Assembly (NCBI RefSeq): GCF_003018235.1
Contig: NZ_CP027437.1
Length of the DNA stretch: 64,000 nt
Reading direction: 5' to 3' (one strand)
Source of the DNA: Escherichia coli
Lineage (GTDB): Bacteria > Pseudomonadota > Gammaproteobacteria > Enterobacterales > Enterobacteriaceae
The notes beneath the pieces are model-generated. The model was not told the DNA's origin, ran no database searches, and saw only the letters and a program-made list of their open reading frames with translations. This document shows positions 1 to 52,836 of this stretch, one piece after another. The translations under genes were made by a program, and so were the position numbers. Every line of letters begins with the position of its first letter. Position 1 is the stretch's first letter.

Positions 1-1332
1 GCGGCATTTTTTAACTTTTTTGGCGTATTGCTAGGCGGACTTAGCGTTGCCTATGCCATTGTCCATATGTTGCCAACCGATTTGTTGCTGAATATGGGGT
101 CAACTCACGGCCTGGCGATGGTCTTTTCCATGCTGCTGGCGGCGATTATCTGGAACCTGGGAACGTGGTTCTTTGGTTTACCGGCCTCCAGTTCGCATAC
201 CTTGATTGGTGCGATTATCGGCATCGGTTTAACCAACGCGCTGTTAACCGGCTCATCGGTGATGGATGCGTTAAACCTGCGTGAAGTGACCAAAATTTTC
301 TCCTCGCTGATTGTTTCCCCTATCGTCGGCCTGGTCATTGCGGGAGGCCTGATATTCCTGCTGCGCCGCTACTGGAGCGGGACGAAAAAGCGTGACCGTA
401 TTCACCGCATTCCGGAAGATCGCAAAAAGAAAAAAGGCAAACGTAAGCCACCATTCTGGACGCGTATTGCGCTGATTGTTTCCGCTGCGGGCGTGGCGTT
501 TTCGCACGGCGCGAACGACGGGCAGAAAGGGATCGGCCTGGTGATGCTGGTACTGGTGGGGATTGCCCCTGCTGGTTTCGTCGTCAATATGAATGCGTCC
601 GGCTATGAAATTACCCGTACCCGCGATGCCGTCACCAACTTTGAACACTATCTGCAACAGCATCCTGAACTGCCGCAGAAGTTGATTGCGATGGAACCTC
701 CATTGCCTGCGGCATCGACTGATGGCACGCAAGTAACGGAGTTTCACTGTCATCCGGCAAATACCTTTGATGCGATTGCGCGCGTTAAAACGATGCTGCC
801 AGGCAATATGGAAAGTTACGAGCCGTTAAGCGTGAGTCAGCGCAGCCAGCTGCGCCGCATTATGCTGTGCATCTCTGATACCTCCGCGAAGCTGGCGAAA
901 CTGCCAGGCGTCAGTAAAGAAGACCAGAACCTGCTGAAAAAACTGCGCAGCGATATGTTAAGCACCATTGAGTACGCTCCGGTGTGGATCATCATGGCAG
1001 TAGCTCTGGCGCTCGGCATTGGCACCATGATTGGCTGGCGTCGTGTAGCGATGACCATCGGTGAGAAGATTGGTAAGCGCGGCATGACGTATGCGCAAGG
1101 CATGGCGGCACAAATGACGGCGGCAGTGTCTATCGGCCTTGCCAGTTATATTGGGATGCCCGTCTCCACAACACACGTCCTCTCGTCTGCGGTAGCAGGG
1201 ACGATGGTGGTGGACGGCGGTGGGTTACAGCGTAAAACGGTAACCAGCATCCTGATGGCGTGGGTGTTTACTTTACCGGCGGCGATTTTTCTTTCTGGTG
1301 GGTTGTACTGGATAGCATTGCAGTTGATTTAA
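1..1332 (+). CDS. pitB: Low-affinity inorganic phosphate transporter PitB; 5' end lies outside the window
   Basis: ORF 28..1332 is in frame with position 1 and matches the C-terminal ~430 aa of the PiT-family phosphate permease (paired PiT repeats, lysine-rich cytoplasmic loop). Called pitB rather than pitA from the adjacent yghT/yghS/yghR. Confidence 0.85.
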
Positions 1333-1341
1333 TCTTCCTGA

Positions 1342-1378
1342 AAATGCCCGGTCCTGGCGATCGGGCATTTCCATTTTT
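1342..1378. terminator. Hairpin with flanking T-run between convergent pitB and yghT; likely bidirectional intrinsic terminator
   Basis: Inverted repeat aatgcccg / cgggcatt at 1343-1350 and 1362-1369, followed by ccatttttg. Confidence 0.6.
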
Positions 1379-1380
1379 GA

Positions 1381-2073
1381 CTAGTGATACCCACGCGCGG
1401 TCATAAAATCCGTAATCGCTTTTTCTGCATCAACCAGTACCTTTTCCAGTGGCTGATTGGCGTCGATATCAACCAGTTGTGCACCACCAAAGGTTAACTG
1501 TGGCGTTATGGCTATCTTTCTTGCCAGCGATTCCCTTTTGTGGTCAGGCTTACGCGCGCAGGCCACGTCTAGATCGACATTGAGTTTGATGACCAGATCA
1601 GGTTTATGGCTCGCCATCCAGTGAAACGCTTTACGTTCCTGGCTTGCCAGCCATGAGACAAAACGACCACCTTCAATGTTAGGTGGGAACACTGTACCAT
1701 CGTAAGCGCCAGGAATTTGGTCCTGAGGATAACGGTCGGTTAGAACAATTAACCCGCGACGACGACAGGCAAGCATATGACGAAAGCGCAGTAAGCGACG
1801 GGCGACAAACGCTGTAATTACCAGCGCCGGAACAGGGCCAGGCAATTTTTTTGCTGTTTTCACCTGATTTCGTTCAATTGTTTTATGTAAGGATTTTCCC
1901 ATCAACGGTAATTTTGTCACTGCACGACCGACATTTCCGGCCTGTTTTCCTAAATGAACTCTTTCGGCTGCACCATATTTTTCGACAACGGTAATGAGAT
2001 GTTCACACACCGTTGACTTGCCTGAACCATCGCTACCAATAACGGCAATTAATGGAGGTGTTATTGACTGCAT
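1381..2073 (-). CDS. yghT: P-loop NTPase, kinase-like (YghT family)
   Basis: 230-aa ORF with Walker [14 protein letters not shown] and a downstream LTDRYP motif resembling the DRY/DRH motif of thymidylate/nucleoside-kinase-fold enzymes; paralogous to the next two genes. Confidence 0.8.
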
Positions 2074-2246
2074 GAATATATCCTTTAATTTAAATATCCA
2101 TTAAAAATATTTATTTGGTTAATATGTTTTTATGAAAGCGTAATTCAGGTCAATGTCACAATTAACCATTGTCACAATAAGGTTGAACGGATATTCTGAG
2201 CACGGACCACGTAATATTCAATACATTATTTGCTGCCGGGTTTTTC

Positions 2247-2960
2247 GTGAATCAACGTAATATGTCAATAATTAATTCCACGCCAGTGCGTGTTATTGCC
2301 ATTGTAGGATGTGATGGTTCAGGTAAATCGACCCTCACGGCAAGCCTGGTAAATGAACTGGCAGCAAGAATGCCAACAGAACACATTTATCTCGGGCAAT
2401 CGTCCGGGCGAATTGGCGAATGGATTTCACAGCTCCCTGTTATTGGCGCACCTTTTGGGCGTTATTTGCGAAGTAAAGCGGCACATGTGCACGAAAAGCC
2501 CTCAGCACCGCCTGGCAATATTACTGCGCTGGTTATCTATCTGCTTTCCTGCTGGCGGGCGTACAAGTTTCGCAAAATGTTGTGTAAAAGCCAGCAAGGC
2601 TATCTGCTCATCACCGACCGCTACCCGCAGGTTGAAGTGCCGGGTTTTCGCTTTGATGGCCCGCAATTGGCAAAAACCACGGGCGGTAACGGTTGGATAA
2701 AAATGTTAAGGCAGCGCGAGCTGAAGCTGTACCAATGGATGGCGTCTTATTTGCCCGTATTGTTGATTCGTCTTGGCATTGATGAACAAACCGCGTTTGC
2801 GCGTAAACCTGACCACCAACTGGCAGCGTTACAGGAAAAAATCGCCGTTACGCCGCAACTGACATTCAATGGCGCAAAGATCCTTGAACTGGATGGTCGG
2901 CAACCAGCCGATGAAATTATGCAAGCGTCACTACGCGCAATTCACGCCGCGCTTTCCTGA
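2247..2960 (+). CDS. yghS: P-loop NTPase, kinase-like (YghS family)
   Basis: 237-aa ORF with Walker A IAIVGCDGSGKST and ITDRYPQ motif; clear paralog of yghT and yghR; no ABC signature (LSGGQ). Confidence 0.8.
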   Translation: MNQRNMSIINSTPVRVIAIVGCDGSGKSTLTASLVNELAARMPTEHIYLGQSSGRIGEWISQLPVIGAPFGRYLRSKAAHVHEKPSAPPGNITALVIYLLSCWRAYKFRKMLCKSQQGYLLITDRYPQVEVPGFRFDGPQLAKTTGGNGWIKMLRQRELKLYQWMASYLPVLLIRLGIDEQTAFARKPDHQLAALQEKIAVTPQLTFNGAKILELDGRQPADEIMQASLRAIHAALS

Positions 2961-2991: not shown

Positions 2992-3748
2992 ATGGATGCA
3001 CTACAAACACAAACTGTTAAGAGTACAACCGCGCCGCAGCCCAACTACATTCCGGGGCTGATTGCGGTGGTCGGGTGTGATGGCACCGGTAAATCCACGC
3101 TGACCACCGACCTGGTGAAATCGCTGCAACAACACTGGCAAACCGAGCGGCGCTATCTGGGGCTGCTCTCCGGCGAAGACGGCGACAAAATCAAACGATT
3201 GCCGTTGGTTGGCGTCTGGCTGGAACGGCGGCTGGCGGCCAAATCCTCGAAAACCCAAAGCATGAAAACCAAATTTCCAGCGCTATGGGCGGCGGTGATT
3301 ATGTACTGCTTCTCGCTGCGAAGAATGGCGAATCTACGCAAGGTTCAGCGACTGGCGCAAAGTGGCGTTCTGGTGGTCAGCGATCGCTTCCCGCAGGCTG
3401 AAATTTCGGGCTTTTATTATGACGGACCGGGGATCGGCGTCGAACGTGCGACCGGGAAAATCAGCATGTTTCTGGCGCAGCGCGAACGGCGTTTATACCA
3501 ACAAATGGCGCTACCGTCCTGAATTAATCATTCGCCTGGGCATTGATATTGATACTGCCATCTCCCGCAAGCCTGACCATGACTATGCCGAGCTGCAGGA
3601 CAAAATCGGCGTCATGTCGACGATTGGCTATAACGGCACAAAAATTCTTGAGATTGATTCCAGAGCGCCTTACAGCGAGGTGCTGGAACAGGCACAGAAG
3701 GCGGTTTCTCTGGTTGCCATCGTTTCTGACCGCCGAAGTTTAACTTAA
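2992..3748 (+). pseudogene. yghR: P-loop NTPase paralog YghR, apparently frameshifted
   Basis: Paralog homology runs in frame 1 (ORF 2992..3522, Walker A IAVVGCDGTGKST, VSDRFPQ) and then continues in another frame (ORF 3362..3748, RPELIIRLGIDIDTAISRKPDH aligning with yghS LPVLLIRLGIDEQTAFARKPDH). The 757-nt span is not a multiple of 3. Confidence 0.55.
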
Positions 3749-3793: not shown

Positions 3794-5143
3794 TTGGCGG
3801 GTTTTAACATCAAACATTGGTTTGCAGATGGCGCGTTTCGCACCATTATTCGCAATAGCGCCTGGTTAGGCTCCAGTAATGTCGTGAGCGCCTTGCTGGG
3901 TCTGTTGGCGCTCTCGTGTGCCGGTAAAGGGATGACGCCCGCCATGTTTGGCGTACTGGTGATTGTGCAATCGTACGCCAAGTCGATCAGCGATTTTATT
4001 AAGTTTCAGACATGGCAGCTGGTGGTTCAGTACGGAACGCCAGCCTTGACCAACAATAATCCGCAGCAATTTCGCAATGTTGTCTCATTTTCCTTCTCGC
4101 TGGATATCGTCAGCGGCGCGGTGGCGATTGTCGGCGGCATTGCCTTACTGCCATTCCTTTCCCATTCATTAGGTCTGGATGACCAAAGCTTTTGGCTGGC
4201 GGCGCTCTATTGCACGCTCATTCCTTCAATGGCTTCCTCCACGCCGACCGGCATTCTGCGTGCGGTAGATCGCTTTGATTTGATTGCTGTACAGCAGGCG
4301 ACGAAACCTTTTCTGCGCGCAGCGGGGAGCGTCGTAGCCTGGTATTTTGACTTTGGTTTTGCGGGTTTTGTTATTGCCTGGTACGTGTCGAATCTGGTTG
4401 GCGGCACCATGTACTGGTGGTTTGCCGCGCGCGAATTACGCCGCAGAAATATCCATAACACCTTCAAATTGAATCTGTTTGAGTCTGCCCGACACATTAA
4501 AGGCGCGTGGAGTTTTGTCTGGTCAACCAACATTGCCCACTCCATCTGGTCGGCACGTAACTCGTGCAGCACAGTGCTGGTGGGGATCGTGTTAGGACCC
4601 GCTGCCGCCGGGTTATTTAAAATCGCCATGACATTCTTCGACGCCGCCGGAACGCCAGCGGGTTTACTGGGTAAAAGTTTTTACCCAGAGGTGATGCGTT
4701 TAGATCCGCGCACCACCAGACCGTGGTTGTTAGGCGTGAAGTCCGGTTTACTGGCGGGCGGAATCGGTATTCTGGTGGCGCTCGCGGTGTTGATCGTCGG
4801 CAAGCCGCTCATTTCGCTGGTGTTTGGCGTTAAGTATCTCGAAGCGTATGACCTGATTCAGGTGATGCTGGGCGCAATTGTGATTTCGATGCTGGGCTTC
4901 CCACAGGAGTCATTGCTATTGATGGCGGGAAAACAGCGCGCTTTTCTCGTGGCGCAAACCATCGCCTCAATCGGCTACATCGTATTGCTGTTCATGTTCT
5001 GTCATCTGTTTGGCGTGCTGGGGGCTGCATTTGCTTACTTCGCTGGGCAATGTCTGGATGTGGTGTTCTCGCTAATTCCAACCTTAAAGGCATTTTTTCA
5101 GCGCCATTCCTTGCTTTATAACGCAGCCGGAGAGAAATCCTGA
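3794..5143 (+). CDS. yghQ: Polytopic inner-membrane protein, MOP-superfamily flippase-like (YghQ); true start uncertain
   Basis: 449-aa ORF with many hydrophobic segments; I recall YghQ being annotated as a putative polysaccharide/lipid flippase. K-12 protein is shorter by my recollection, so an internal start is possible. Confidence 0.7.
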   Translation: MAGFNIKHWFADGAFRTIIRNSAWLGSSNVVSALLGLLALSCAGKGMTPAMFGVLVIVQSYAKSISDFIKFQTWQLVVQYGTPALTNNNPQQFRNVVSFSFSLDIVSGAVAIVGGIALLPFLSHSLGLDDQSFWLAALYCTLIPSMASSTPTGILRAVDRFDLIAVQQATKPFLRAAGSVVAWYFDFGFAGFVIAWYVSNLVGGTMYWWFAARELRRRNIHNTFKLNLFESARHIKGAWSFVWSTNIAHSIWSARNSCSTVLVGIVLGPAAAGLFKIAMTFFDAAGTPAGLLGKSFYPEVMRLDPRTTRPWLLGVKSGLLAGGIGILVALAVLIVGKPLISLVFGVKYLEAYDLIQVMLGAIVISMLGFPQESLLLMAGKQRAFLVAQTIASIGYIVLLFMFCHLFGVLGAAFAYFAGQCLDVVFSLIPTLKAFFQRHSLLYNAAGEKS

Positions 5144-5967
5144 TGATGAGAAAATATTTCCCGCTTGAGGCTAGCGAGCGTCTATTTGTTGCGATTGAAG
5201 AAGATGATGTCGTTGATGCACAGGTCAGTTTGCCGCCGACTATCGCACTAAGTTGTACCACCGAAATCATCCATGATAATTACGCGTTATGCCTGAAATT
5301 CTGGCTGGATGGTGTTAATCGTCAGGAGCTACTGCGTTTAATCCGCAAACAGGCGAAAGGCGATGAGCTGACGACAGACGAGCGCAAAAAGTATAAATAC
5401 ATGCGAGCGCGCTACAAGCATCTGCGCTTTGCGCAACGGCTGTATTTAAAGAAGCATCAGGCCGGATTTTTATTCGGCAAAACGACCGTTTTTTTGGGGC
5501 GTTTTCAGGACGGCTTTCGTAACGGTAAGAAAAATATTGTGTCGTATTACGGCAACCTGTTACGGGTTTATTTAAGCTCTCCGGTCTGGTCGTTGGTGAA
5601 CTATTCATTACGCCATAGCCAGTTAGAAAGCGTAAGCGGTTTTATTGCCTATCGGCAAAAGCAAATGCATACCCTGAAAGAGATAATTGCCAAACCGCGA
5701 CTAACTGGCAGGGAATTTCATGATGTGCGAAAAATCATCAGCCAGCAGGTTTCTTATTACGACACCCTAAGATCGCTTGATCCTGAAAATAAAGAGGCGT
5801 TACAGATTTCCCGCTTCCTCGCCGCCATTAATGGCCTGATGGGGGATAAACACGACGACATGGTGGCGGATGATATGGAAAACCGCCAGTCGTATGATGC
5901 ACCGGTGGCGCTGGATAGCGATATTCGCCAGCGCTTAGAGCTGCTGATTTCGCGTTTTCCGCTATAA
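5143..5967 (+). CDS. Hypothetical basic protein, 274 aa, function unknown
   Basis: ORF start overlaps the yghQ stop (TGATG), indicating translational coupling; no motif I recognise. Confidence 0.55.
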   Translation: MMRKYFPLEASERLFVAIEEDDVVDAQVSLPPTIALSCTTEIIHDNYALCLKFWLDGVNRQELLRLIRKQAKGDELTTDERKKYKYMRARYKHLRFAQRLYLKKHQAGFLFGKTTVFLGRFQDGFRNGKKNIVSYYGNLLRVYLSSPVWSLVNYSLRHSQLESVSGFIAYRQKQMHTLKEIIAKPRLTGREFHDVRKIISQQVSYYDTLRSLDPENKEALQISRFLAAINGLMGDKHDDMVADDMENRQSYDAPVALDSDIRQRLELLISRFPL

Positions 5968-5975
5968 CCGGAGCA

Positions 5976-6539
5976 ATGATGTCATCTCGTTTGATTATTG
6001 CGCTGATTATCATGCTCTTAGCCCCGGGTGTGCAGGCACACAATTTCGTCACTGGCAAAACGGTTACCCCTGTTTATATCCAGGAAGGCGGCGAGCTGCT
6101 TCTGAATAGCGACGACGAAATTCACTACCAAAAGTGGAACAGCACACAGCTGGCGGGAAAAGTTCGCATTATTCAGTATATCGCCGGGCGTAAGTCGGCG
6201 AAGAAAAAGAACTCACTGTTAATTAAAGCGGTTGAAGCGGCAAACTTTCCGCAGGATCGTTTTCAGCCCACCACCATTGTGAACACCGATGATGCCATTT
6301 TTGGTACTGGCTATTTTGTCGTTGGCAAAATCGAAAAAAATAAACGCCGCTATCCGTGGGCGCAATTCGTTATTGACGGCAATGGACAGGGACGCGTTGC
6401 CTGGCGGTTGCCGGAGCAGAGTTCAACCATTCTGGTGCTGAATAAAGCCGGGCAAATTCAGTGGGCAAAGGACGGCAGCCTGACGCCGGAAGAGGTAGAA
6501 CATGTCATTGCGCTGGCGCAGAAACTGATCAATGAATAA
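5976..6539 (+). CDS. Secreted/periplasmic YtfJ-family protein
   Basis: 187-aa ORF with N-terminal signal peptide (MMSSRLIIALIIMLLAPGVQA then HNF). Blocks TTIVNTDDAI and WAKDGSLTPEEV match my memory of E. coli YtfJ. Confidence 0.6.
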   Translation: MMSSRLIIALIIMLLAPGVQAHNFVTGKTVTPVYIQEGGELLLNSDDEIHYQKWNSTQLAGKVRIIQYIAGRKSAKKKNSLLIKAVEAANFPQDRFQPTTIVNTDDAIFGTGYFVVGKIEKNKRRYPWAQFVIDGNGQGRVAWRLPEQSSTILVLNKAGQIQWAKDGSLTPEEVEHVIALAQKLINE

Positions 6540-6569
6540 AAAATTCAAAGGATTGAGGGCGTTAGTGAG

Positions 6570-7640
6570 ATGAAGCTGGTTGAACACTACATCATGCGTG
6601 GTACGCGCCGTCTGGTGCTGATTATCGTCGGTTTTCTGATCTTTATTTTCGCCAGCTACTCCGCACAGCGTTATCTGACCGAAGCGGCAAATGGGACATT
6701 AGCTCTTGATGTTGTGCTGGATATTGTTTTCTACAAGGTGCTGATTGCACTGGAGATGTTGTTACCTGTTGGACTGTATGTGTCAGTTGGCGTGACGCTA
6801 GGGCAGATGTATACCGACTCGGAAATTACCGCTATTTCTGCGGCGGGGGGCAGTCCGGGACGCTTGTACAAAGCCGTTCTTTATCTGGCGATACCGCTAA
6901 GTATTTTTGTCACCCTTCTGTCGATGTATGGTCGTCCGTGGGCTTATGCGCAGATTTATCAACTGGAGCAACAGTCACAGTCGGAGCTGGATGTTCGCCA
7001 GTTGCGGGCAAAGAAATTTAACACTAACGATAACGGACGAATGATCCTTTCGCAGACGGTTGATCAGGATAATAATCGCCTGACTGACGCGCTGATTTAT
7101 ACTTCTACTGCCAATCGAACCCGCATTTTCCGCGCCCGTTCGGTTGATGTGGTTGACCCATCACCTGAGAAACCGACCGTTATGTTGCATAACGGGACCG
7201 CCTATCTTCTCGATCATCAGGGGCGTGACGACAACGAACAGATCTACCGTAATCTGCAATTACATCTGAATCCGCTGGATCAAAGCCCTAACGTCAAACG
7301 CAAAGCAAAATCGGTCACGGAGCTGGCGCGCTCCGCCTTTCCTGCCGATCATGCCGAACTGCAATGGCGACAAAGCCGTGGCCTGACAGCATTGTTGATG
7401 GCGCTGCTGGCCATTTCATTAAGTCGGGTAAAACCGCGGCAAGGGCGATTTTCAACGTTATTGCCACTGACGTTGCTGTTTATTGCCATTTTTTATGGCG
7501 GCGACGTCTGCCGTACGCTGGTGGCTAACGGCGCGATTCCCCTCATTCCTGGTTTGTGGTTAGTACCCGGACTCATGCTAATGGGCCTGCTGATGCTGGT
7601 CGCACGCGACTTCTCATTGCTGCAGAAATTTTCCCGATGA
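6570..7640 (+). CDS. LptF/LptG-family (YjgP/YjgQ) permease, first of a pair
   Basis: 356-aa ORF with N-terminal TM helices, an LGQMYTDSEITAISAAG block resembling LptF LGKLYTESEIT, a central soluble domain and C-terminal TM helices. Confidence 0.7.
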   Translation: MKLVEHYIMRGTRRLVLIIVGFLIFIFASYSAQRYLTEAANGTLALDVVLDIVFYKVLIALEMLLPVGLYVSVGVTLGQMYTDSEITAISAAGGSPGRLYKAVLYLAIPLSIFVTLLSMYGRPWAYAQIYQLEQQSQSELDVRQLRAKKFNTNDNGRMILSQTVDQDNNRLTDALIYTSTANRTRIFRARSVDVVDPSPEKPTVMLHNGTAYLLDHQGRDDNEQIYRNLQLHLNPLDQSPNVKRKAKSVTELARSAFPADHAELQWRQSRGLTALLMALLAISLSRVKPRQGRFSTLLPLTLLFIAIFYGGDVCRTLVANGAIPLIPGLWLVPGLMLMGLLMLVARDFSLLQKFSR

Positions 7641-8716
7641 ATGTTTTCAGTCGCTATTTAATCCGTCATCTCTTTCTCGGTTTTGCCGCCGCCGCAGGGC
7701 TATTGCTGCCGCTTTTTACCACCTTCAACCTGATTAACGAACTGGATGATGTCAGCCCGGGCGGTTATCGCTGGACTCAGGCGGTGCTGGTGGTGCTGAT
7801 GACCTTACCGCGTACACTGGTCGAACTTTCGCCGTTTATCGCATTATTGGGAGGGATTGTTGGCCTGGGGCAGTTATCGAAAAACAGTGAGCTTACCGCC
7901 ATTCGCAGCACGGGGTTTTCTATCTTCCGTATTGCACTAGTGGCGCTGGTTGCCGGGATATTGTGGACTGTTTCGTTAGGCGCGATAGATGAGTGGGTGG
8001 CGTCGCCATTGCAGCAACAGGCGCTGCAAATCAAATCGACTGCCACCGCGTTGGGGGAGGACGATGACATTACCGGCAATATGCTTTGGGCCAGGCGCGG
8101 TAATGAATTTGTGACGGTGAAATCGCTGAACGAGCAGGGCCAGCCTGTGGGCGTGGAGATATTTCATTATCGCGACGATCTCTCGCTCGAATCCTACATT
8201 TTTGCACGCAGTGCCTCCATTGAAGACGACAAAACATGGATCCTGCATGGTGTGAATCATAAAAAATGGTTGAATGGCAAGGAAACGCTGGAAACATCAG
8301 ATAATCTTGCCTGGCAATCGGCCTTCACCAGTATGAATCTTGAAGAGTTATCGATGCCGGGAAATACTTTTTCTGTCCGTCAACTTAATCATTACATCCA
8401 TTATTTGCAGGAAACTGGGCAACCCAGCAGCGAATACCGCCTTGCACTGTGGGAAAAACTGGGACAACCCATCCTGACCCTGGCGATGATTTTGCTGGCT
8501 GTGCCGTTTACCTTTAGTGCCCCGCGTTCGCCTGGGATGGGTAGCCGTCTCGCTGTAGGCGTCATCGTGGGCTTACTTACCTGGATCAGCTATCAAATCA
8601 TGGTCAATCTGGGATTGCTATTTGCGTTGAGCGCACCTGTTACCGCGCTCGGTTTACCGGTAGCGTTTGTGCTGGTGGCGTTGAGCCTGGTGTATTGGTA
8701 TGACAGACAACATTAA
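7637..8716 (+). CDS. LptF/LptG-family (YjgP/YjgQ) permease, second of a pair
   Basis: Start MNVFSRYLIRH overlaps the upstream stop (ATGA at 7637-7640); SELTAIRSTGFS block resembles LptG SELVVMQASGF; same TM - periplasmic domain - TM layout. Confidence 0.7.
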   Translation: MNVFSRYLIRHLFLGFAAAAGLLLPLFTTFNLINELDDVSPGGYRWTQAVLVVLMTLPRTLVELSPFIALLGGIVGLGQLSKNSELTAIRSTGFSIFRIALVALVAGILWTVSLGAIDEWVASPLQQQALQIKSTATALGEDDDITGNMLWARRGNEFVTVKSLNEQGQPVGVEIFHYRDDLSLESYIFARSASIEDDKTWILHGVNHKKWLNGKETLETSDNLAWQSAFTSMNLEELSMPGNTFSVRQLNHYIHYLQETGQPSSEYRLALWEKLGQPILTLAMILLAVPFTFSAPRSPGMGSRLAVGVIVGLLTWISYQIMVNLGLLFALSAPVTALGLPVAFVLVALSLVYWYDRQH

Positions 8717-8717
8717 A

Positions 8718-8744
8718 CCCGCCGTGGCGCAACACCACAGCGGG
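8718..8744. terminator. Hairpin in the 35-bp gap between the convergent permease and Spt-like genes; possible bidirectional terminator
   Basis: cccgccgtgg (8718-8727) and ccacagcggg (8735-8744) form an imperfect inverted repeat with one mismatch. Confidence 0.4.
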
Positions 8745-8750
8745 CTCACA

Positions 8751-9923
8751 TTACTGCTTCAGAGTAGCGAACGCTTGAATGATGGCATCAATTTGCTCAC
8801 GACTGTGGGCAGCGTTTACGCTACAGCGCAGCAGCGTGATGCCTGCAGGCGCGGCAGGTGGCAGGATAAGATTCACATAAACGCCCAGCGAAATAAGCTC
8901 GCGCCAGATGCGTAAACCTTCCTCTTTCGAACCGATTATTACTGGCACTACCGGGCTAATATGTGAACTTAACTCATAATCCAGTTTTTGCAGACCGTCA
9001 TACAGATGGTTGGCATTATCCATCAGCTTTTGCCGCAACTCTGGTTGTGAGACAATGGTTCTTAACGACGAGCGCACGGTCGCAATGCAGGACGGAGAAG
9101 GAGAGGCGGTAAAAATATACGGGCGGCTGCCGTAGCGCAACACTTCCATCGCTTCCGAACCGACAGCAAAACCGCCAATCGAGGCCAGGCTTTTACTGAA
9201 GGTACCAACGATAATATCCACATCATCTTCAACGCCAACGGCTTCAGCCAGTCCGCGCCCCGTTGCGCCTAACACGCCAAACGAATGCGCTTCATCGACA
9301 ATCAAATAACCACCGAGACGACGTTTGATATCAACAATTTCCGCCAGCGGCGCAACGTCACCGAGCATACTGTAGATGCCTTCAACGATGATAATCGCCT
9401 CTTTTGCCCGTTCACCGAGGCGAACCATGCGCCGTTCCAGATCTTTAGCATCGTTATGGCGGAAACGAATAATTTCCGCGCCACCGAGAGAACAGGCGTC
9501 ATAAATACTGGCGTGGCTGTCGGCATCCAGTAACACCACGGCGTTATGGTCGGCAAGTGCGCTGATGACGCCTAAATTAGCGGTATAACCGGTTGAAAAA
9601 ACGATAGCGGTAGGGCGATTAAAAAACTCGGCGATCTCTTTCTCTAACGCCAGATGCGGCGCATAACTGCCGTTTGCCATACGAGAACCGGTGGTGCCGG
9701 TGCCTTGGGCCGCTAACGCTGCCTGACCTTCGGCGATGGCATCATGATTAAAGGTTAAACCGAGATAATTATTGGTCCCGGCCAGAATCACTTTTTTATT
9801 GCCGATCCGACCTTCGGTGGCGGAATACACTTCATCAATACAGGTGCCAAACGGTGTTAACCCGTTGTCACTAAATTGCAGTCGCTCGCCAGCAAGGCGC
9901 GCATATTTATCGTATAGCCCCAT
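8751..9923 (-). CDS. PLP-dependent alpha-oxoamine synthase, serine-palmitoyltransferase-like (Spt/Kbl/BioF family)
   Basis: 390-aa ORF with the PLP-lysine motif GTFSKSLASIGGF and DEAHSFG, as in serine palmitoyltransferase and 8-amino-7-oxononanoate synthase. Confidence 0.8.
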   Translation of the reverse strand: MGLYDKYARLAGERLQFSDNGLTPFGTCIDEVYSATEGRIGNKKVILAGTNNYLGLTFNHDAIAEGQAALAAQGTGTTGSRMANGSYAPHLALEKEIAEFFNRPTAIVFSTGYTANLGVISALADHNAVVLLDADSHASIYDACSLGGAEIIRFRHNDAKDLERRMVRLGERAKEAIIIVEGIYSMLGDVAPLAEIVDIKRRLGGYLIVDEAHSFGVLGATGRGLAEAVGVEDDVDIIVGTFSKSLASIGGFAVGSEAMEVLRYGSRPYIFTASPSPSCIATVRSSLRTIVSQPELRQKLMDNANHLYDGLQKLDYELSSHISPVVPVIIGSKEEGLRIWRELISLGVYVNLILPPAAPAGITLLRCSVNAAHSREQIDAIIQAFATLKQ

Positions 9924-10171
9924 TATTTATTCTCCAGCCATGGAAGTAGTGTTTCCATTAATTGCGCAGGGGTTTTGACATCCAGCAGAATATTAATAGG
10001 AATGGAAATATCGAATCTGTCTTCCAGCATCATTAAGAGATCCATCACTTTGATCGACTCCAGGCCAAGATCGTTGACGAGATCGCTGTCGGGCTTAATT
10101 TCCACACCGTTTTCGACCAAATCCTGTAAACAGGAAAGGATGTAATCCATTACTATTTCACGATTTACCAT
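9923..10171 (-). CDS. Acyl carrier protein
   Basis: 82-aa acidic ORF with phosphopantetheine-attachment motif DLGLESIKVMDL; its stop overlaps the Spt start (TAATG). Confidence 0.75.
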   Translation of the reverse strand: MVNREIVMDYILSCLQDLVENGVEIKPDSDLVNDLGLESIKVMDLLMMLEDRFDISIPINILLDVKTPAQLMETLLPWLENK

Positions 10172-10202
10172 AGAAACGTTAACACACCTTTAAACAAGAC
10201 AA

Positions 10203-11117
10203 TCAAAATAGCCCGTTGCGTAATGCGTGTTCCAGGCTAATCCCGGGAAACCAATTAATATCTTCAGAAATACGGTTATTACTTGCCGACCAGTCGGCAT
10301 GAGTTAATTCACGGATTTTCGAACGAGTCAGCATCGGTTCTTTACCCGCCAGACGGCTCAACGCGGTACTGATATCCGCAAGGCAGGTGAGTAGCGGCAG
10401 AGGAATACCGACCATCCGCACGGAACCGCAACGGGCGTCGGCGGCAAGCTGTCTTACGCGTTGCCAGTCATAGCCTCCGGCGACGCCATCGCATAATTCA
10501 TAGGTTTGCGTCTGTACAGTTTCGGCGCTTAACCACTGACCCACTGCTTGCGCAAAATCGGTGACGTGAAGAAAAGAGAGCTGTGTCTCTGGCGTGCCAA
10601 GTCGTGGCAGCAGGCCGCGCAGCATCCAGTCAAACAGCGGTTTTAACTCTTTATCGCCGGGACCATACACGGCTGTCGGGCGAAAAACGCCCAGCGTAAT
10701 TTCATCAGCCATTGCAGTCAGCCGTTGTTCGGCGACGTGTTTGGAATTTGCGTACCAGGAGAGTTCGGGATGGCGCGCCGCCAGCGAAGAGATAAACAGA
10801 AAACGTTGGCAAAAGCCGCTCTCTTTTGCCGCTTGCATCAGGCGCAGGCTGCCGTCAACGTTACAGCGGGTAAAAATCTCTTCTTTGTGTCCGCGCACTT
10901 GTCCGGCGCAATGGACCACCGCGCTGGCTCCGGCAACCAGTTCGCTAAGCGAATGTGTATCTTCCAGCGAACCGCGCACCCAGATGAGATTATCATTGAC
11001 GTGAGCGCGGGCAGTACGCGTCAATGCGCGAACGTGAAAGCCGCGGGCGAGCAGGTTATCGATAATATATTTACCGATAAACCCGGTAGCGCCCGTCACC
11101 GCGACAGTTTGATTCAT
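10203..11117 (-). CDS. NAD(P)-dependent epimerase/dehydratase-family (extended SDR) reductase, CerR-like
   Basis: 304-aa ORF with N-terminal Rossmann motif VTGATGFIG and catalytic YxxxK (YANSK). Confidence 0.75.
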   Translation of the reverse strand: MNQTVAVTGATGFIGKYIIDNLLARGFHVRALTRTARAHVNDNLIWVRGSLEDTHSLSELVAGASAVVHCAGQVRGHKEEIFTRCNVDGSLRLMQAAKESGFCQRFLFISSLAARHPELSWYANSKHVAEQRLTAMADEITLGVFRPTAVYGPGDKELKPLFDWMLRGLLPRLGTPETQLSFLHVTDFAQAVGQWLSAETVQTQTYELCDGVAGGYDWQRVRQLAADARCGSVRMVGIPLPLLTCLADISTALSRLAGKEPMLTRSKIRELTHADWSASNNRISEDINWFPGISLEHALRNGLF

Positions 11118-12823
11118 GCCAGGGATTCCTGCACATGAAGGCTTGCAGCATAACGTTTTTTCGCTTCCGCACGGGCAGGCTTGCCGGAGGACGTTCGGGG
11201 AATACTGTGGGGCGGCAACAGATCGATAGCCGCTGTTACGCCAAATTCGCTTTGGATCCGTGCTACCAGTGCGTGGATAAGCTGCCCACGACGTTCTTCG
11301 TCGCTGATCCTACACTGGATCTGCAGAATGATTTTTTCCTGGGCGGTAACAAAAGCAATCGCATCGCCAGAATGAATTTCCGGTTCCTGTTCCGCAATAT
11401 ATTCAATATCCTGCGGCCAGATATTACGGCCACGAATAATAATCAGATCTTTAATGCGTCCGGTGACATACAGATAACCGTCCAGCAGATAACCGAGGTC
11501 GCCGGTGTCTAACCAGCCCGTCGCGGCAATCTCGTCTTGTGAAATCTGGTCGCCAAAGTAACCGCTCATCAGGCTAGGGCCGGAGATGCAAATATGGCCT
11601 ACCACACGTTCCGCGACAGGTATACCTGCTTCATTGCGGATTTCAATGCCATGTTCCGGCAACGCTTTACCGCAGTTGACGAAAGTCGATACGGCGCGTG
11701 TTTCAGCATCCGGCGCGACGGCTTTGCCCTGATATTCGAGGATGTCGCGATCCACTTCGTTAACCACAACCCCGGAAGCTTCATCAGAGAAGCTGACAGC
11801 CAGCGCATTTTCTGCCAGTCCGTAGCACGGCATGAAAGTTTTATCGTCAAAGTTGACCTGACGGAAACATTCAGCGAATTGATGGAGTTGTTCTGCGGAG
11901 ATGGGTTCTGCACCAATACCAGCGACGCGCCAGCAGGAAAGATCCAGTTCAGCGAGATCTTTTTCATTCACGCGGCGCTGGCACAATTCATAGCCAAACG
12001 GCGGCGCAACGGAAACGGTGCCGCGATTTTTACTGATCAATTTAAGCCATTGCAGAGGACGCATGGCAAAATCCTGAGTGCGCAAATAATCTACTGAAAG
12101 CTGCGTGGCGACGGGGGGCAGGAGAAAGCCGACCAGTCCCATATCATGGTAGAAAGGCAGCCAGGAGACGCAGCGGTCGCCAGGGCGTAATTTAATGCCA
12201 TCGTGGCTTATAGCACGTAGATTAGCCATCACTTCGCGATGGGTGATAATGACGCCACGGGGAAAACGGGTGCTGCCGGAGGTGTACTGGAGGTAGGCGA
12301 TATCGTTCGGAACTGGACGCTGGAGCGCAACATCGGCTTCCGGTAATGCCTTAAACCAGGCGTGGCTTAAAACATGTAATTCGGGGTTGTTATGCGTAGC
12401 GGCATTGACCAGTGGCAACCACTCATCACCAGTGATAATGGCTGCGGGCTGGCAACTTGCCAGTAAACCCTGCAGTTTGGCGCTCCAGGAATCCCGCTGA
12501 CCGACGCCCATTGGAATCGCCAACGGGACGGCGACTAAGCCGGCATACTGGCAGGAAAAAAAAGCCTCTACGAACCCGCTACTGGTTTCGGCAATCAGCG
12601 CCACGCGATCGCCTTTTTTCAGGTTCAGCGATAACAACCGCTTCGCACCAGCTTCGGCACGCGCTTTTAACGTCTGATATTCCAGTTGATCTTCAAGTTG
12701 GCAACGTCTGTCATAAAAATTCATTCCGGCGCTACTCAGAGCGGCGTAGTCCAAAGCATCAACCAGCGTTGGAAAATCGGCATAGCGCATAGGTAGGGAA
12801 TGCGTAAAGATTTTATTAGACAT
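11114..12823 (-). CDS. Fatty-acyl-AMP ligase / acyl-ACP synthetase (AMP-binding superfamily)
   Basis: Adenylation motifs YTSGSTRFPRGV and TGDLGY...GRIKDLIIIRGRNI; stop overlaps the reductase start (ATGA). Start taken at the ATG for MSNKIF; the ORF track extends to 12850 on a TTG. Confidence 0.8.
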   Translation of the reverse strand: MSNKIFTHSLPMRYADFPTLVDALDYAALSSAGMNFYDRRCQLEDQLEYQTLKARAEAGAKRLLSLNLKKGDRVALIAETSSGFVEAFFSCQYAGLVAVPLAIPMGVGQRDSWSAKLQGLLASCQPAAIITGDEWLPLVNAATHNNPELHVLSHAWFKALPEADVALQRPVPNDIAYLQYTSGSTRFPRGVIITHREVMANLRAISHDGIKLRPGDRCVSWLPFYHDMGLVGFLLPPVATQLSVDYLRTQDFAMRPLQWLKLISKNRGTVSVAPPFGYELCQRRVNEKDLAELDLSCWRVAGIGAEPISAEQLHQFAECFRQVNFDDKTFMPCYGLAENALAVSFSDEASGVVVNEVDRDILEYQGKAVAPDAETRAVSTFVNCGKALPEHGIEIRNEAGIPVAERVVGHICISGPSLMSGYFGDQISQDEIAATGWLDTGDLGYLLDGYLYVTGRIKDLIIIRGRNIWPQDIEYIAEQEPEIHSGDAIAFVTAQEKIILQIQCRISDEERRGQLIHALVARIQSEFGVTAAIDLLPPHSIPRTSSGKPARAEAKKRYAASLHVQESLA

Positions 12824-13194
12824 ATACACCACGAAAAAATTGGATATCAAAAATAAAATGACAATAATGCGGTGGATTATATAGGCATAAAAGATAAATG
12901 AGATAGTATTTTCATCAGTGTGAAAATGAACATTGATTTAAATAATGAGTTTGAGTTTTTTTGTTTTTATTGTGAATGATATTTAATTTATGAATGTATT
13001 AAGAAGAAGCCTTGTCCGGTCGCCTTAAATCGACAAAAGGCATTGTGGCGCTTCTGTGTAGTCTCTGACCTTATCGTAATCATTAATAAATGCTATTTAT
13101 TCGTCGTTTGTATTCATTGGGTTGATTATTAAGGTGCCGTTCGTTGCTGTTGCAACCTGTTTGTCACCGTTAATTATTTGTTACCCACAGAACT
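12824..13194. promoter_or_regulatory. AT-rich divergent control region between the lipid operon (-) and yghO (+)
   Basis: ~370 bp of visibly AT-rich non-coding DNA with A/T tracts between two divergently oriented starts; typical of divergent promoters and H-NS-bound regions. No specific site identified. Confidence 0.45.
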
Positions 13195-14337
13195 ATGGAA
13201 TGCGATCTGCTGATGATTAAAATTGAAAAAGTAATTAATAAAAATGACCTTAAGGCATTTATCGCTTTTCCGTCATCACTTTATCCCGACGATCCAAACT
13301 GGATACCCCCTTTATTCATTGAACGCAACGAGCATTTGTCTGCGAAAAATCCGGGGACGGACCATATCATCTGGCAGGCGTGGGTGGCAAAAAAAGCCGG
13401 GCAGATAGTTGGGCGAATTACCGCGCAAATCGATACCTTGCACCGTGAGCGTTACGGTGAAGATACCGGTCATTTCGGCATGATTGACGCCATTGATGAT
13501 CCGCAGGTTTTTGCCGCGTTGTTTGGCGCAGCGGAAGCGTGGTTGAAGTCACAAGGAGCAAGTAAGATCAGCGGGCCTTTCAGCCTGAATATCAATCAGG
13601 AAAGCGGATTACTGATTGAAGGTTTCGATACACCACCCTGTGCGATGATGCCGCACGGTAAACCGTGGTATGCCGCGCATATTGAACAATTGGGTTATCA
13701 CAAAGGCATTGATTTACTGGCGTGGTGGATGCAGCGAACCGATCTCACTTTCTCTCCGGCGCTAAAAAAACTGATGGATCAGGTGCGTAAGAAGGTGACC
13801 ATTCGCTGCATCAATCGCCAGCGGTTTGCCGAAGAGATGCAGATCCTGCGTGAGATTTTCAACTCTGGCTGGCAGCACAACTGGGGATTTGTGCCGTTTA
13901 CCGAACATGAATTCGCGACCATGGGCGATCAACTTAAATATCTGGTGCCGGACGATATGATCTACATCGCTGAGATTGATTCTGCACCCTGCGCGTTTAT
14001 TGTCGGCTTGCCAAACATCAACGAGGCGATTGCCGATCTGAACGGATCGCTCTTTCCCTTCGGCTGGGCAAAATTGCTGTGGCGTTTAAAAGTCAGCGGT
14101 GTGCGAACTGCGCGAGTACCGCTGATGGGCGTGCGGGACGAGTATCAGTTTAGCCGCATCGGCCCGGTGATTGCGCTGTTATTGATTGAAGCCTTACGCG
14201 ATCCGTTTGCCCGCCGGAAGATCGATGCGCTGGAAATGTCATGGATCCTCGAAACCAATACAGGCATGAATAACATGCTGGAACGCATTGGGGCGGAGCC
14301 GTACAAGCGTTACCGATTGTATGAAAAGCAGATTTAA
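13195..14337 (+). CDS. yghO: YghO, candidate N-acyltransferase (possibly GNAT-like), intact here
   Basis: 380-aa ORF next to glcC, which is where yghO sits in E. coli. The acyltransferase assignment is from recollection of annotation and context, not from a motif I can verify. Start could be M7 (MIKIEKV). Confidence 0.65.
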   Translation: MECDLLMIKIEKVINKNDLKAFIAFPSSLYPDDPNWIPPLFIERNEHLSAKNPGTDHIIWQAWVAKKAGQIVGRITAQIDTLHRERYGEDTGHFGMIDAIDDPQVFAALFGAAEAWLKSQGASKISGPFSLNINQESGLLIEGFDTPPCAMMPHGKPWYAAHIEQLGYHKGIDLLAWWMQRTDLTFSPALKKLMDQVRKKVTIRCINRQRFAEEMQILREIFNSGWQHNWGFVPFTEHEFATMGDQLKYLVPDDMIYIAEIDSAPCAFIVGLPNINEAIADLNGSLFPFGWAKLLWRLKVSGVRTARVPLMGVRDEYQFSRIGPVIALLLIEALRDPFARRKIDALEMSWILETNTGMNNMLERIGAEPYKRYRLYEKQI

Positions 14338-51770: not shown

Positions 51771-52778
51771 GTGAAAAAGCAATGGATTGTTGGCACGGCG
51801 CTGCTTATGTTGATGACTGGTAATGTCTGGGCAGATGGCGAACCGCCAACTGAAAATATCTTAAAAGATCAATTCAAAAAGCAGTATCACGGCATTCTCA
51901 AGCTTGATGCCATCAGCTTAAAAAATCTTGATGCTAAGGGTAATCAGGCCACCTGGTCAGCGGAAGGCGATGTCTCTTCCAGTGACGATCTCTATACCTG
52001 GGTCGGTCAGTTGGCAGATTACGAACTGCTCGAACAGACCTGGACGAAAGATAAACCGGTAAAATTCTCGGCGATGTTAACCAGTAAAGGAACGCCCGCG
52101 TCTGGCTGGTCGGTGAACTTTTACTCTTTTCAGGCGGCAGCCAGCGATCGTGGACGGGTGGTCGACGATATCAAAACGAATAATAAATATCTGATCGTGA
52201 ATAGCGAAGATTTCAATTATCGCTTTAGTCAGCTTGAATCAGCGTTGAATAACCAGAAGAACTCGATTCCTGCGCTGGAAAAGGAAGTGAAAGCGCTTGA
52301 TAAGCAAATGGTGGCGGCGCAGAAAGCAGCGGATGCATATTGGGGAAAAGATGCAAACGGTAAGCAAATGACCCGCGAAGACGCCTTTAAAAAAATTCAC
52401 CAACAGCGTGATGAGTTTAATAAACAGAACGATAGCGAGGCGTTCGCGGTTAAATATGACAAAGAGGTTTATCAACCGGCGATTGCGGCATGTCATAAAC
52501 AGAGTGCAGATTGTTATGAAGTGCCGATTCAGCAGAAGCGAGATTTCGATATCAACGAACAACGGCGACAGACTTTTCTGCAATCACAAAAACTTAGCCG
52601 TAAATTGCAGGATGACTGGATAACGCTCGAAAAAGGGCAATATCCGTTAACGATGAAAGTTTCAGAAATAAACAGTAAAAAAGTCGCGATTTTGATGAAA
52701 ATTGACGATATCAATCAGGCTAATGAACGCTGGAAAAAAGATACCGAACAACTGCGGCGCAATGGGGTGATTAAGTAA
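51771..52778 (+). CDS. yggM: DUF1202-family protein YggM
   Basis: 335-aa ORF with signal peptide; position after ansB. Confidence 0.8.
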   Translation: MKKQWIVGTALLMLMTGNVWADGEPPTENILKDQFKKQYHGILKLDAISLKNLDAKGNQATWSAEGDVSSSDDLYTWVGQLADYELLEQTWTKDKPVKFSAMLTSKGTPASGWSVNFYSFQAAASDRGRVVDDIKTNNKYLIVNSEDFNYRFSQLESALNNQKNSIPALEKEVKALDKQMVAAQKAADAYWGKDANGKQMTREDAFKKIHQQRDEFNKQNDSEAFAVKYDKEVYQPAIAACHKQSADCYEVPIQQKRDFDINEQRRQTFLQSQKLSRKLQDDWITLEKGQYPLTMKVSEINSKKVAILMKIDDINQANERWKKDTEQLRRNGVIK

Positions 52779-52796
52779 CTCATGTTAAGTGCCTTT

Positions 52797-52836
52797 GCCG
52801 GATAATATAAAAAGTTATCCGGCAAATTATTTTTTA
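52797..52836. terminator. Bidirectional terminator between yggM and the TRAP operon
   Basis: Perfect 9-bp inverted repeat gccggataa / ttatccggc followed by aaattatttttt. Confidence 0.65.

Follow-up and report, generated by a model that had tools for sequence, protein, structure and literature searches.

Two described systems come closest to the one examined here. The first is the canonical LptB2FG(C) extractor of lipopolysaccharide (LPS) (PDB 6MHU, 6S8H, 6MIT), whose permease genes lptF and lptG lie between pepA and yjgR in Escherichia coli K-12, with lptB more than 1 Mb away in the lptC-lptA-lptB operon. The second belongs to Caulobacter, where a second LptC, LptF and LptG in the sphingolipid region had earlier been proposed as transporters (PMC11324152), and where LptF2 and LptG2 (CCNA_01214 and CCNA_01213) have recently been characterized by Uchendu, Isom & Klein (bioRxiv 2026, 10.64898/2026.04.12.717747): deletion of lptF2 and lptG2 was possible only in the absence of spt or of the anionic head-group step, LptF2 and LptG2 co-purified, and both also co-purified with the single LptB. 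The same study reports lptF2/lptG2 in many alpha- and gammaproteobacterial sphingolipid loci and lptC2 in Caulobacter only, and its Figure 2B draws the locus of E. coli UTI89. The sphingolipid-extractor model is already published for Caulobacter, and the idea is no longer new. Here we analyse a 64-kb stretch of the E. coli contig NZ_CP027437.1 (assembly GCF_003018235.1), hereafter the window, in which positions 5976-8716 encode a second pair of LptF- and LptG-family permeases, for which we take over the Caulobacter names LptF2 and LptG2, together with a secreted YtfJ-family protein, YtfJ2. A first, sequence-only reading of this stretch had proposed that the permeases form a dedicated lipid extractor that borrows its ATPase from elsewhere.

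The lipid side of the locus has been studied before: a five-gene dihydroceramide pathway is clustered in both E. coli and Caulobacter, the Spt, AcpR and AasR proteins of E. coli BL21 are enzymatically active, and yghO/ECD_02850 ('aca') and an epimerase-family gene are listed as the N-acyltransferase and the reductase (PMC9386255). We consider it likely that LptF2 and LptG2 form the membrane part of an ATP-binding cassette (ABC) extractor for the sphingolipid of this locus, powered by the housekeeping LptB. Sequence comparison suggests that the E. coli pair is possibly an independently evolved case of the recently described Lpt-type sphingolipid extractors. What is new relative to the literature is the grouping of gamma- and betaproteobacterial versus Caulobacter proteins, the replacement in LptG2 of three lysines that bind LPS phosphate, and the fold and distribution of YtfJ2. 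A ceramide-synthesis locus that is complete and maintained by selection, with what is likely its own Lpt-type extractor, is found in about three-quarters of sequenced E. coli and in many other Enterobacterales and pseudomonads. If LptF2 and LptG2 share LptB, and perhaps also LptA/LptDE, there would be competition between sphingolipid export and LPS export for a single essential ATPase, and antibiotics that target the Lpt system would strike both pathways.

A second LptF-LptG pair in the E. coli sphingolipid locus

The locus is the pitB-yghTSRQ…yghO-glcC region of E. coli. Its central features in the window are the following.

5976-6539 (+): ytfJ2, secreted YtfJ-family protein, 187 aa (TIGR01626, PF09695)
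6570-7640 (+): lptF2, LptF-family permease paralogue, 356 aa (TIGR04407)
7637-8716 (+): lptG2, LptG-family permease paralogue, 359 aa (TIGR04408)
8714-8748: GC-rich, terminator-like hairpin with a 16-bp stem, between the convergent lptG2 and spt stop codons
8751-9923 (-): spt, serine palmitoyltransferase (annotation; BL21 enzyme activity in PMC9386255)
9923-10171 (-): acpR, specialised acyl carrier protein (annotation; PMC9386255)
10203-11117 (-): epi/cerR-type NAD-dependent reductase (annotation; PMC9386255)
11114-12850 (-): aasR, acyl-AcpR synthetase (annotation; PMC9386255)
13195-14337 (+): yghO, N-acyltransferase and candidate bacterial ceramide synthase (annotation; PMC9386255, 'aca')

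The sequence-only reading had described two overlapping permease genes beside a gene for a signal-peptide protein and convergent with a lipid operon. All of these open reading frames (ORFs) are present as described, the 4-nt ATGA overlap of lptF2 and lptG2 is seen in the sequence at 7637-7640, and lptG2 faces spt across the hairpin. The reading had also taken the permeases for a second copy of the LptFG platform and had proposed their alignment to LptF and LptG, including the coupling helix; this alignment gives full-length matches and supports the assignment. Both proteins match their family profiles over the full length and above curated cutoffs, and the F-type and G-type are clearly distinguishable: LptF2 scores 319 bits on TIGR04407 (cutoff 230) versus 67 bits on the LptG model, and LptG2 scores 305 bits on TIGR04408 (cutoff 240) versus 85 bits on the LptF model. 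In the PDB, LptF2 aligns end to end with solved LptF chains (E 5e-32) and LptG2 with solved LptG chains (E 5e-42), the matched structures coming from Vibrio, Pseudomonas, Shigella, E. coli, Klebsiella, Enterobacter and Acinetobacter. Identity to the K-12 housekeeping proteins is 29% for LptF2 and 28% for LptG2. Hydropathy profiles resemble those of K-12 LptF and LptG, with three transmembrane (TM) segments, a periplasmic domain of ~160 aa and three further TM segments (TM4 of LptF2 falls slightly under the hydropathy threshold), and together with the alignments they predict the periplasmic-domain layout of the LptF/LptG family. The pair thus shares with canonical LptB2FG(C) its family, its predicted architecture and its adjacent, translationally coupled F and G genes, whereas it differs in being only 28-29% identical, in lying among sphingolipid genes rather than next to pepA, and in being dispensable, as it is absent from K-12.

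The Prokaryotic Genome Annotation Pipeline (PGAP) and RefSeq name the pair 'LPS export ABC transporter permease LptF/LptG' (e.g., in NZ_CP010121.1) because the paralogues exceed the equivalog cutoffs, and PGAP names YghS and YghT, encoded nearby, 'dTMP kinase' despite scores of 24 bits versus a cutoff of 83. Both sets of names are probably over-specific. One effect of the RefSeq lptF/lptG naming is that thousands of genomes appear to carry lptFG duplications, and a distinct transporter class is hidden among them. In addition, one 456-aa protein (P0024) annotated as GspC combines PF11356 with a segment 98% identical to LptG2, and is probably a mis-assembly or a mis-called fusion.

The pair is linked to sphingolipid genes across proteobacteria

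Scanning one genome per species with an alignment of LptG2 orthologues as the query, we recovered 75 loci. These fall in Enterobacterales (Escherichia, Hafnia, Shimwellia, Sodalis, Serratia, Pluralibacter, Pseudocitrobacter, Erwinia, Pantoea, Citrobacter, Mangrovibacter, Klebsiella indica, Cedecea, Rahnella, Tatumella and Rosenbergiella), in Pseudomonadaceae (Pseudomonas, Azotobacter, Azomonas and Stutzerimonas) and, in two cases including Methyloversatilis, in Betaproteobacteria. lptF2 lies directly 5' of lptG2 in every locus that reaches that far, and spt, acpR, epi, aasR and yghO lie within 10 kb of the pair in nearly all loci with enough flanking sequence, in an order and orientation that vary between lineages. 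Adjacency to these five genes was seen in Escherichia, Hafnia, Serratia, Erwinia, Pantoea, Citrobacter, Rosenbergiella, Pseudomonas, Azotobacter, Stutzerimonas and Methyloversatilis. This recurrent linkage supports the earlier proposal that the pair is dedicated to the lipid of its locus.

Around this shared core, two versions of the locus can be distinguished. The Enterobacterales version adds yghQ, an ORF of 274 aa, ytfJ2 and yghT/S/R. The version in Pseudomonadaceae and Betaproteobacteria adds an MsbA-like fused ABC exporter, an IspD-like nucleotidyltransferase, a YegS/DAGK-type lipid kinase, a 321-aa protein and an OlsC/LpxO-like hydroxylase; an example of this accessory set is found in the Pseudomonas marginalis locus L055 at 699-2729 (-), 8003-8860 and 11089-13819 (+), and 25-30 loci are similar. 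The 321-aa gene, which follows the lipid kinase in the Pseudomonas-type loci, had no Pfam match. The string lptF2-lptG2-kinase-321aa recurs in a distant metagenomic locus (L084), and L079 and L080 hold a looser form of it with a Metallophos/CDP-alcohol phosphotransferase block in between.

An exhaustive HMMER search placed a sharp break at the edge of the family, with LptG2-type representatives at least 44% identical and all others at most 37% identical. Cluster names of the distant LptG2-like representatives were uninformative. Among them, P0140 adjoins genes for an acyl carrier protein, an epimerase and an AMP-ligase, and P0140, P0131 and P0294 all adjoin DAGK-type lipid-kinase genes. Since these nearest outliers lie in lipid-type loci, a wider set of lipid-locus LptFG paralogues may exist.

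Coupling helices and the source of the ATPase

The sequence-only reading had pointed to the lack of an ATPase in cis. As a description of the window this is correct: among ORFs of at least 100 aa, none has both a Walker A motif and an ABC signature, and a tblastn search for E. coli LptB gave no match in the 64 kb. The ORFs with a Walker A motif are YghT, YghS, YghR, the 274-aa ORF and two unrelated ones at ~33 kb and ~59 kb, and the earlier statement that YghR, YghS and YghT have Walker A motifs and lack an ABC signature was borne out. As an anomaly, however, the observation does not stand, because canonical lptFG also lacks lptB in cis, and a missing cis ATPase is therefore normal for the family and not distinctive.

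A single glutamate in the coupling helix between TM2 and TM3 of each permease (E84 in LptF, E88 in LptG) reportedly couples LptFG to LptB. The equivalent residue is E85 in LptF2, present in 75 of 75 orthologues, and E85 in LptG2, present in 75 of 76, and the columns S84/E85 are invariant in a four-way alignment of LptF2, LptG2, K-12 LptF and K-12 LptG. The coupling helix of LptF2 is identical to that of LptF at 7 of 13 positions versus 29% overall, making it the best-conserved cytoplasmic segment. The pair is thus like canonical LptB2FG(C) both in conserving the coupling-helix glutamate and in having no ATPase encoded in cis. Across about 80 loci, tblastn detected no dedicated paralogue of LptB, LptC or LptA; the sole LptB-like matches (~27-38%, at the level of the nucleotide-binding domain) fell on the MsbA-like exporter or on ABC genes that are unrelated and lie several kb away. 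The absence of an LptB copy from the loci, the retained glutamates and the co-purification of the Caulobacter proteins with a single LptB all support the idea of a borrowed ATPase.

A different source of energy would be required if the pair extracted the lipid of the locus with another unlinked ABC ATPase or with the P-loop proteins YghR, YghS and YghT, and we regard this as improbable. It would be in keeping with the lack of a cis-encoded ATPase, with the presence of the three P-loop proteins in every Enterobacterales locus, and with the fact that an LptB interaction is known only in Caulobacter, whose proteins are not clear orthologues. Nevertheless, canonical LptFG also depends on an unlinked LptB, and the 7 of 13 identities between the coupling helices of LptF2 and LptF include the critical glutamate. 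We considered YghR, YghS and YghT as candidates for the missing ATPase and rejected them, as their Walker A motif is not accompanied by an ABC signature and the only similarity they show, to dTMP kinases, is weak. Their matches in Pseudomonas-type loci are moreover either absent or only ~32-39% identical, with the exception of one metagenome bin (L051, ~70%).

Distribution and selection within E. coli, and loss from K-12

Of 5426 complete E. coli genomes, 4151 match positions 5900-8800 of the window, at 95-99.5% identity, and in these the RefSeq annotation of the region reads YtfJ family protein, lptF and lptG, with spt convergent to them. The permease pair is intact in 4103-4151 of the 5426 genomes and absent from 23%, including K-12; as canonical lptFG is found in 5425 of 5426, about 77% of E. 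coli hold both pairs. The ytfJ2-lptF2-lptG2 segment matches 4164 places; one of them belongs to a plasmid record, and in some genomes the segment is matched at two places. Ratios of nonsynonymous to synonymous substitution rates (dN/dS) within Escherichia are 0.05-0.09 for lptF2, 0.03-0.04 for lptG2, 0.09-0.24 for ytfJ2, 0.07 for the 274-aa ORF and 0.03-0.07 for spt. Purifying selection on the permease pair is strong.

K-12 lacks the locus because an IS5 element has taken the place of the whole stretch that runs from aasR into the 3' part of yghQ, as seen when MG1655 positions 3130146-3131340 are compared with window positions ~5000-13200. The genes lost are aasR, epi, acpR, spt, lptG2, lptF2, ytfJ2 and the 274-aa ORF; yghQ of K-12 is a truncated remnant whose 3' end is gone, and the end of yghO overlaps the insertion sequence.

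Substrate pocket and the LptC-bypass position

In the canonical transporter, the lipid A phosphates and the inner core of LPS are contacted by LptG K34, K40, K41, K62, R133 and R136 and by LptF R33 and K317 (Tang et al. 2019), and we mapped these contacts onto 75 LptF2/LptG2 orthologues. Several positions have changed in character: LptG K34, K40 and K41, which lie in TM1, are replaced by D/N/T, by D/E and by D, respectively, LptG R133 by L/Q/I/V, and LptG I66 by D/E/N. Others have remained basic, namely LptG K62 (R), LptG R136 (K/R), LptF R33 (R) and LptF K317 (R/K). This pattern, although only suggestive, would fit a smaller, less anionic head group.

The pocket also bears on the possibility that the pair is a redundant or back-up LPS exporter, as its PGAP names imply. 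The cavity residues LptF R33 and F26 and LptG R136, L26 and Y257 are retained, and both proteins do exceed the TIGR04407 and TIGR04408 equivalog cutoffs and are labelled lptF and lptG in RefSeq; yet K34E is lethal in canonical LptG (Tang et al. 2019), and the family has D/N/T at this very position. Such an exporter would also have to be reconciled with an identity of 28-29% to the housekeeping pair of the same species, with a location beside sphingolipid genes and never beside LPS genes across the 75 loci, and with the loss of the pair from K-12 without consequence, in contrast to the retention of canonical lptFG in 5425 of 5426 genomes. We therefore consider a back-up role in LPS export very improbable.

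A further position of interest is LptF R212, where the substitutions R212G/C/S bypass LptC (PMC4986956, PMC9972910). The LptF2 family has A/S/G/T at the equivalent position, and a small residue here would fit a transporter that has no LptC of its own. This remains a lead, because one of three alignments puts R212 in a gap: it is opposite a gap in the four-way alignment and opposite Ala in the HMMER alignment and in a 77-sequence MAFFT alignment.

Relationship to Caulobacter LptF2 and LptG2

The gamma- and betaproteobacterial pair and that of Caulobacter have in common that a second LptF/LptG pair lies inside an spt locus with no second LptB, and that each has been proposed to extract sphingolipid while sharing the ATPase of LPS export. 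They differ in that Caulobacter has an LptC2, which the gamma/beta loci lack, and in that Caulobacter is without YtfJ2, the 274-aa protein and YghRST. For sequence comparison, the Caulobacter proteins were recovered from a machine-read Supplemental Figure 1. E. coli LptG2 scored 130-145 bits against E. coli LptG, 58 against Caulobacter LptG2 and 50 against Caulobacter LptG, and E. coli LptF2 scored 84-92 bits against E. coli LptF, 40 against Caulobacter LptF2 and 51 against Caulobacter LptF. In a neighbour-joining tree rooted on LptF, gamma/beta LptG2 was monophyletic in 92 of 100 bootstraps, and Caulobacter LptG2 was never its sister but clustered with Caulobacter LptG. Orthology between the two pairs is supported neither by the pairwise scores nor by the bootstrapped tree, both of which put the gamma/beta pair closer to gamma/beta-type LptG than to Caulobacter LptG2, and we do not retain it. 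The comparison favours separate duplications in the alpha and gamma/beta lineages, a result that is provisional because of optical character recognition errors, the neighbour-joining method and long branches.

YtfJ2 and the accessory genes of Enterobacterales

Upstream of lptF2, the Enterobacterales version of the locus contains the following genes in addition to ytfJ2.

1381-2073 (-): yghT, P-loop kinase-like (Walker A, weak dTMP-kinase match)
2247-2960 (+): yghS, P-loop kinase-like, paralogous to YghT and YghR (Walker A, weak dTMP-kinase match)
2992-3748 (+): yghR, P-loop kinase-like, frameshifted in the window (Walker A, weak dTMP-kinase match)
3794-5143 (+): yghQ, MOP-family flippase-like membrane protein, full length at 449 aa (weak MOP flippase matches)
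5143-5967 (+): conserved 274-aa protein, all-helical with a basic conserved patch, without Pfam or NCBIfam match

The same arrangement is found in strain C4, in the order pitB, yghT, yghS, a yghR homologue, full-length yghQ, a hypothetical gene, the YtfJ family gene, lptF and lptG, followed on the convergent side by spt, an acyl carrier protein, an epimerase/dehydratase-family protein and a fatty acyl-AMP ligase, and then by yghO and glcC. Full-length yghQ is labelled 'lipopolysaccharide biosynthesis protein' in RefSeq.

YtfJ2 matches TIGR01626 with 212 bits (cutoff 151) and PF09695 with an E-value of 1.5e-59. It is 54% identical to YtfJ of K-12 (b4216), with which it shares its invariant residues, including an AGRxSAK loop, and a signal peptide; it differs from YtfJ in being a second copy inside a sphingolipid locus and in being confined to Enterobacterales. 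Its N-terminus, MMSSRLIIALIIMLLAPGVQA|HNF, is signal-peptide-like, with cleavage before HNF, and is conserved across orthologues. An AlphaFold2 model (pLDDT 87) has an alpha/beta thioredoxin-like fold, for which Foldseek returned TlpA, ResA, CcmG and peroxiredoxin folds at TM-scores of 0.5-0.6, and the protein contains no cysteine. These two features argue that YtfJ2 is neither a redox enzyme nor a beta-jellyroll bridge, and on the model it is a periplasmic, redox-inactive protein of predicted thioredoxin fold. As a substitute for LptC or LptA we discarded it, the modelled fold being thioredoxin-like and not a beta-jellyroll. In the model, the invariant AGRxSAK loop comes after strand 63-70, where thioredoxin-like folds would be expected to have their active-site motif, and anion binding at this loop would be a guess. 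Searching PDB sequences with YtfJ2 gave nothing significant, and no function for YtfJ was found in the literature.

The sequence-only reading had grouped the YtfJ-like gene with the permeases, and here the comparison across loci disagrees. ytfJ2 occurs only in the Enterobacterales loci and is absent from the Pseudomonas-type loci; it is kept through rearrangements of the locus, usually beside the 274-aa ORF and yghQ, and these three genes move as a block independently of lptF2G2 in Sodalis, Rosenbergiella and some Serratia and Erwinia. The 274-aa protein always adjoins yghQ and occurs in the same locus as ytfJ2. Its AlphaFold2 model is an all-helical bundle (pLDDT 92) with a weak match to CHAD-like domains (6qv5, E 0.05, TM-score 0.48), CHAD domains being polyphosphate-binding, and it is cytoplasmic, with an invariant basic cluster formed by K85, R88, R90, K92, H93 and R95.

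These data can be combined with the tree into a more specific proposal, in which Lpt extractors would have entered sphingolipid export on at least two occasions through a separate gamma/beta duplication, and in which the Enterobacterales version, having no LptC-like partner, would use an extra periplasmic and cytoplasmic module made up of YtfJ2, the CHAD-like 274-aa protein and the MOP flippase YghQ. We put this forward as a tentative possibility that is rather doubtful as a whole. If the extra module were real, it would provide the first functional context for the orphan YtfJ family.

A proposed export pathway and its assessment

In the extraction pathway that we propose, ceramide would be assembled at the inner membrane, on its cytoplasmic face, by the products of the spt-acpR-epi-aasR operon and yghO, and its head group would probably be modified on the same face, with the kinase-like YghR, YghS and YghT as candidates. 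The lipid would then be flipped across the inner membrane, for which the MOP-type YghQ is a candidate in Enterobacterales and the MsbA-like exporter in Pseudomonadaceae. An LptF2-LptG2 heterodimer, with two LptB bound at its coupling helices, would extract it from the inner membrane's outer leaflet and would probably hand it over to the shared LptA/LptDE bridge. We infer here which lipid is carried in E. coli, that LptB is the ATPase, how the lipid continues past the inner membrane and whatever part YtfJ2 may take. Overall, synteny, the conserved coupling glutamates and the Caulobacter precedent support the earlier suggestion of a dedicated extractor that borrows its ATPase.

Several observations weigh against this assignment. 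The formation of an F2-G2 complex, the co-purification with LptB and the synthetic lethality that depends on anionic sphingolipid are results from Caulobacter only and would apply to E. coli by analogy; because the two pairs are not demonstrably orthologous, the transfer of function rests on analogy and synteny. On the side of the pocket, PDB-chain alignment shows that canonical P. aeruginosa LptG likewise lacks K34, K40 and K41, and for this reason the pocket differences are only suggestive. Taken as a test of substrate, the LPS-contact residues are not clean, since they are not universal to the family. None of the genes of the locus accounts for transit across the periplasm. Finally, our literature search found no report of a native E. 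coli sphingolipid, and 3-oxo-sphinganine was not detectable in BL21 with empty vectors (PMC9386255), so that the locus may be silent in the laboratory.

The last of these points would also fit a cryptic locus, in which the permeases handle a lipid other than a sphingolipid or serve a niche-specific programme, and in which YtfJ2, the 274-aa protein and YghQ form a separate module for head-group or polymer export. No sphingolipid was detected in BL21 without over-expression, the yghQ-274-aa-ytfJ2 block can move without lptF2G2 in the four genera named above, and the distant LptG2-like P0294 is accompanied by a lipid kinase with no spt within 8 kb. Every gene tested is nevertheless under purifying selection, and the five ceramide genes co-occur with lptF2G2 in almost every locus with enough flanking sequence, and we judge a cryptic locus of this kind to be unlikely. 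Extraction of the locus's own sphingolipid by LptF2 and LptG2 with housekeeping LptB is the interpretation that we favour.

Additional features of the window

A scan for promoter and terminator consensus sequences gave counts no higher than those in shuffled sequence, and the hairpin at 8714-8748 alone stands out. Another terminator-like hairpin, with a 12-bp stem and a T-rich tail, is found at 1342-1370 (+), after the pitB stop codon and before the convergent yghT. The yghR homologue in the window has a 2-bp deletion near 3512 compared to strain C4 and K-12, and the reading frame is lost beyond residue 176 of 252; we see in this either an error of sequencing or a pseudogene specific to the strain. 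Lastly, the G+C content is 0.41-0.45 at 52000-56000 compared to ~0.51-0.55 elsewhere in the window, and this segment may have been horizontally acquired.

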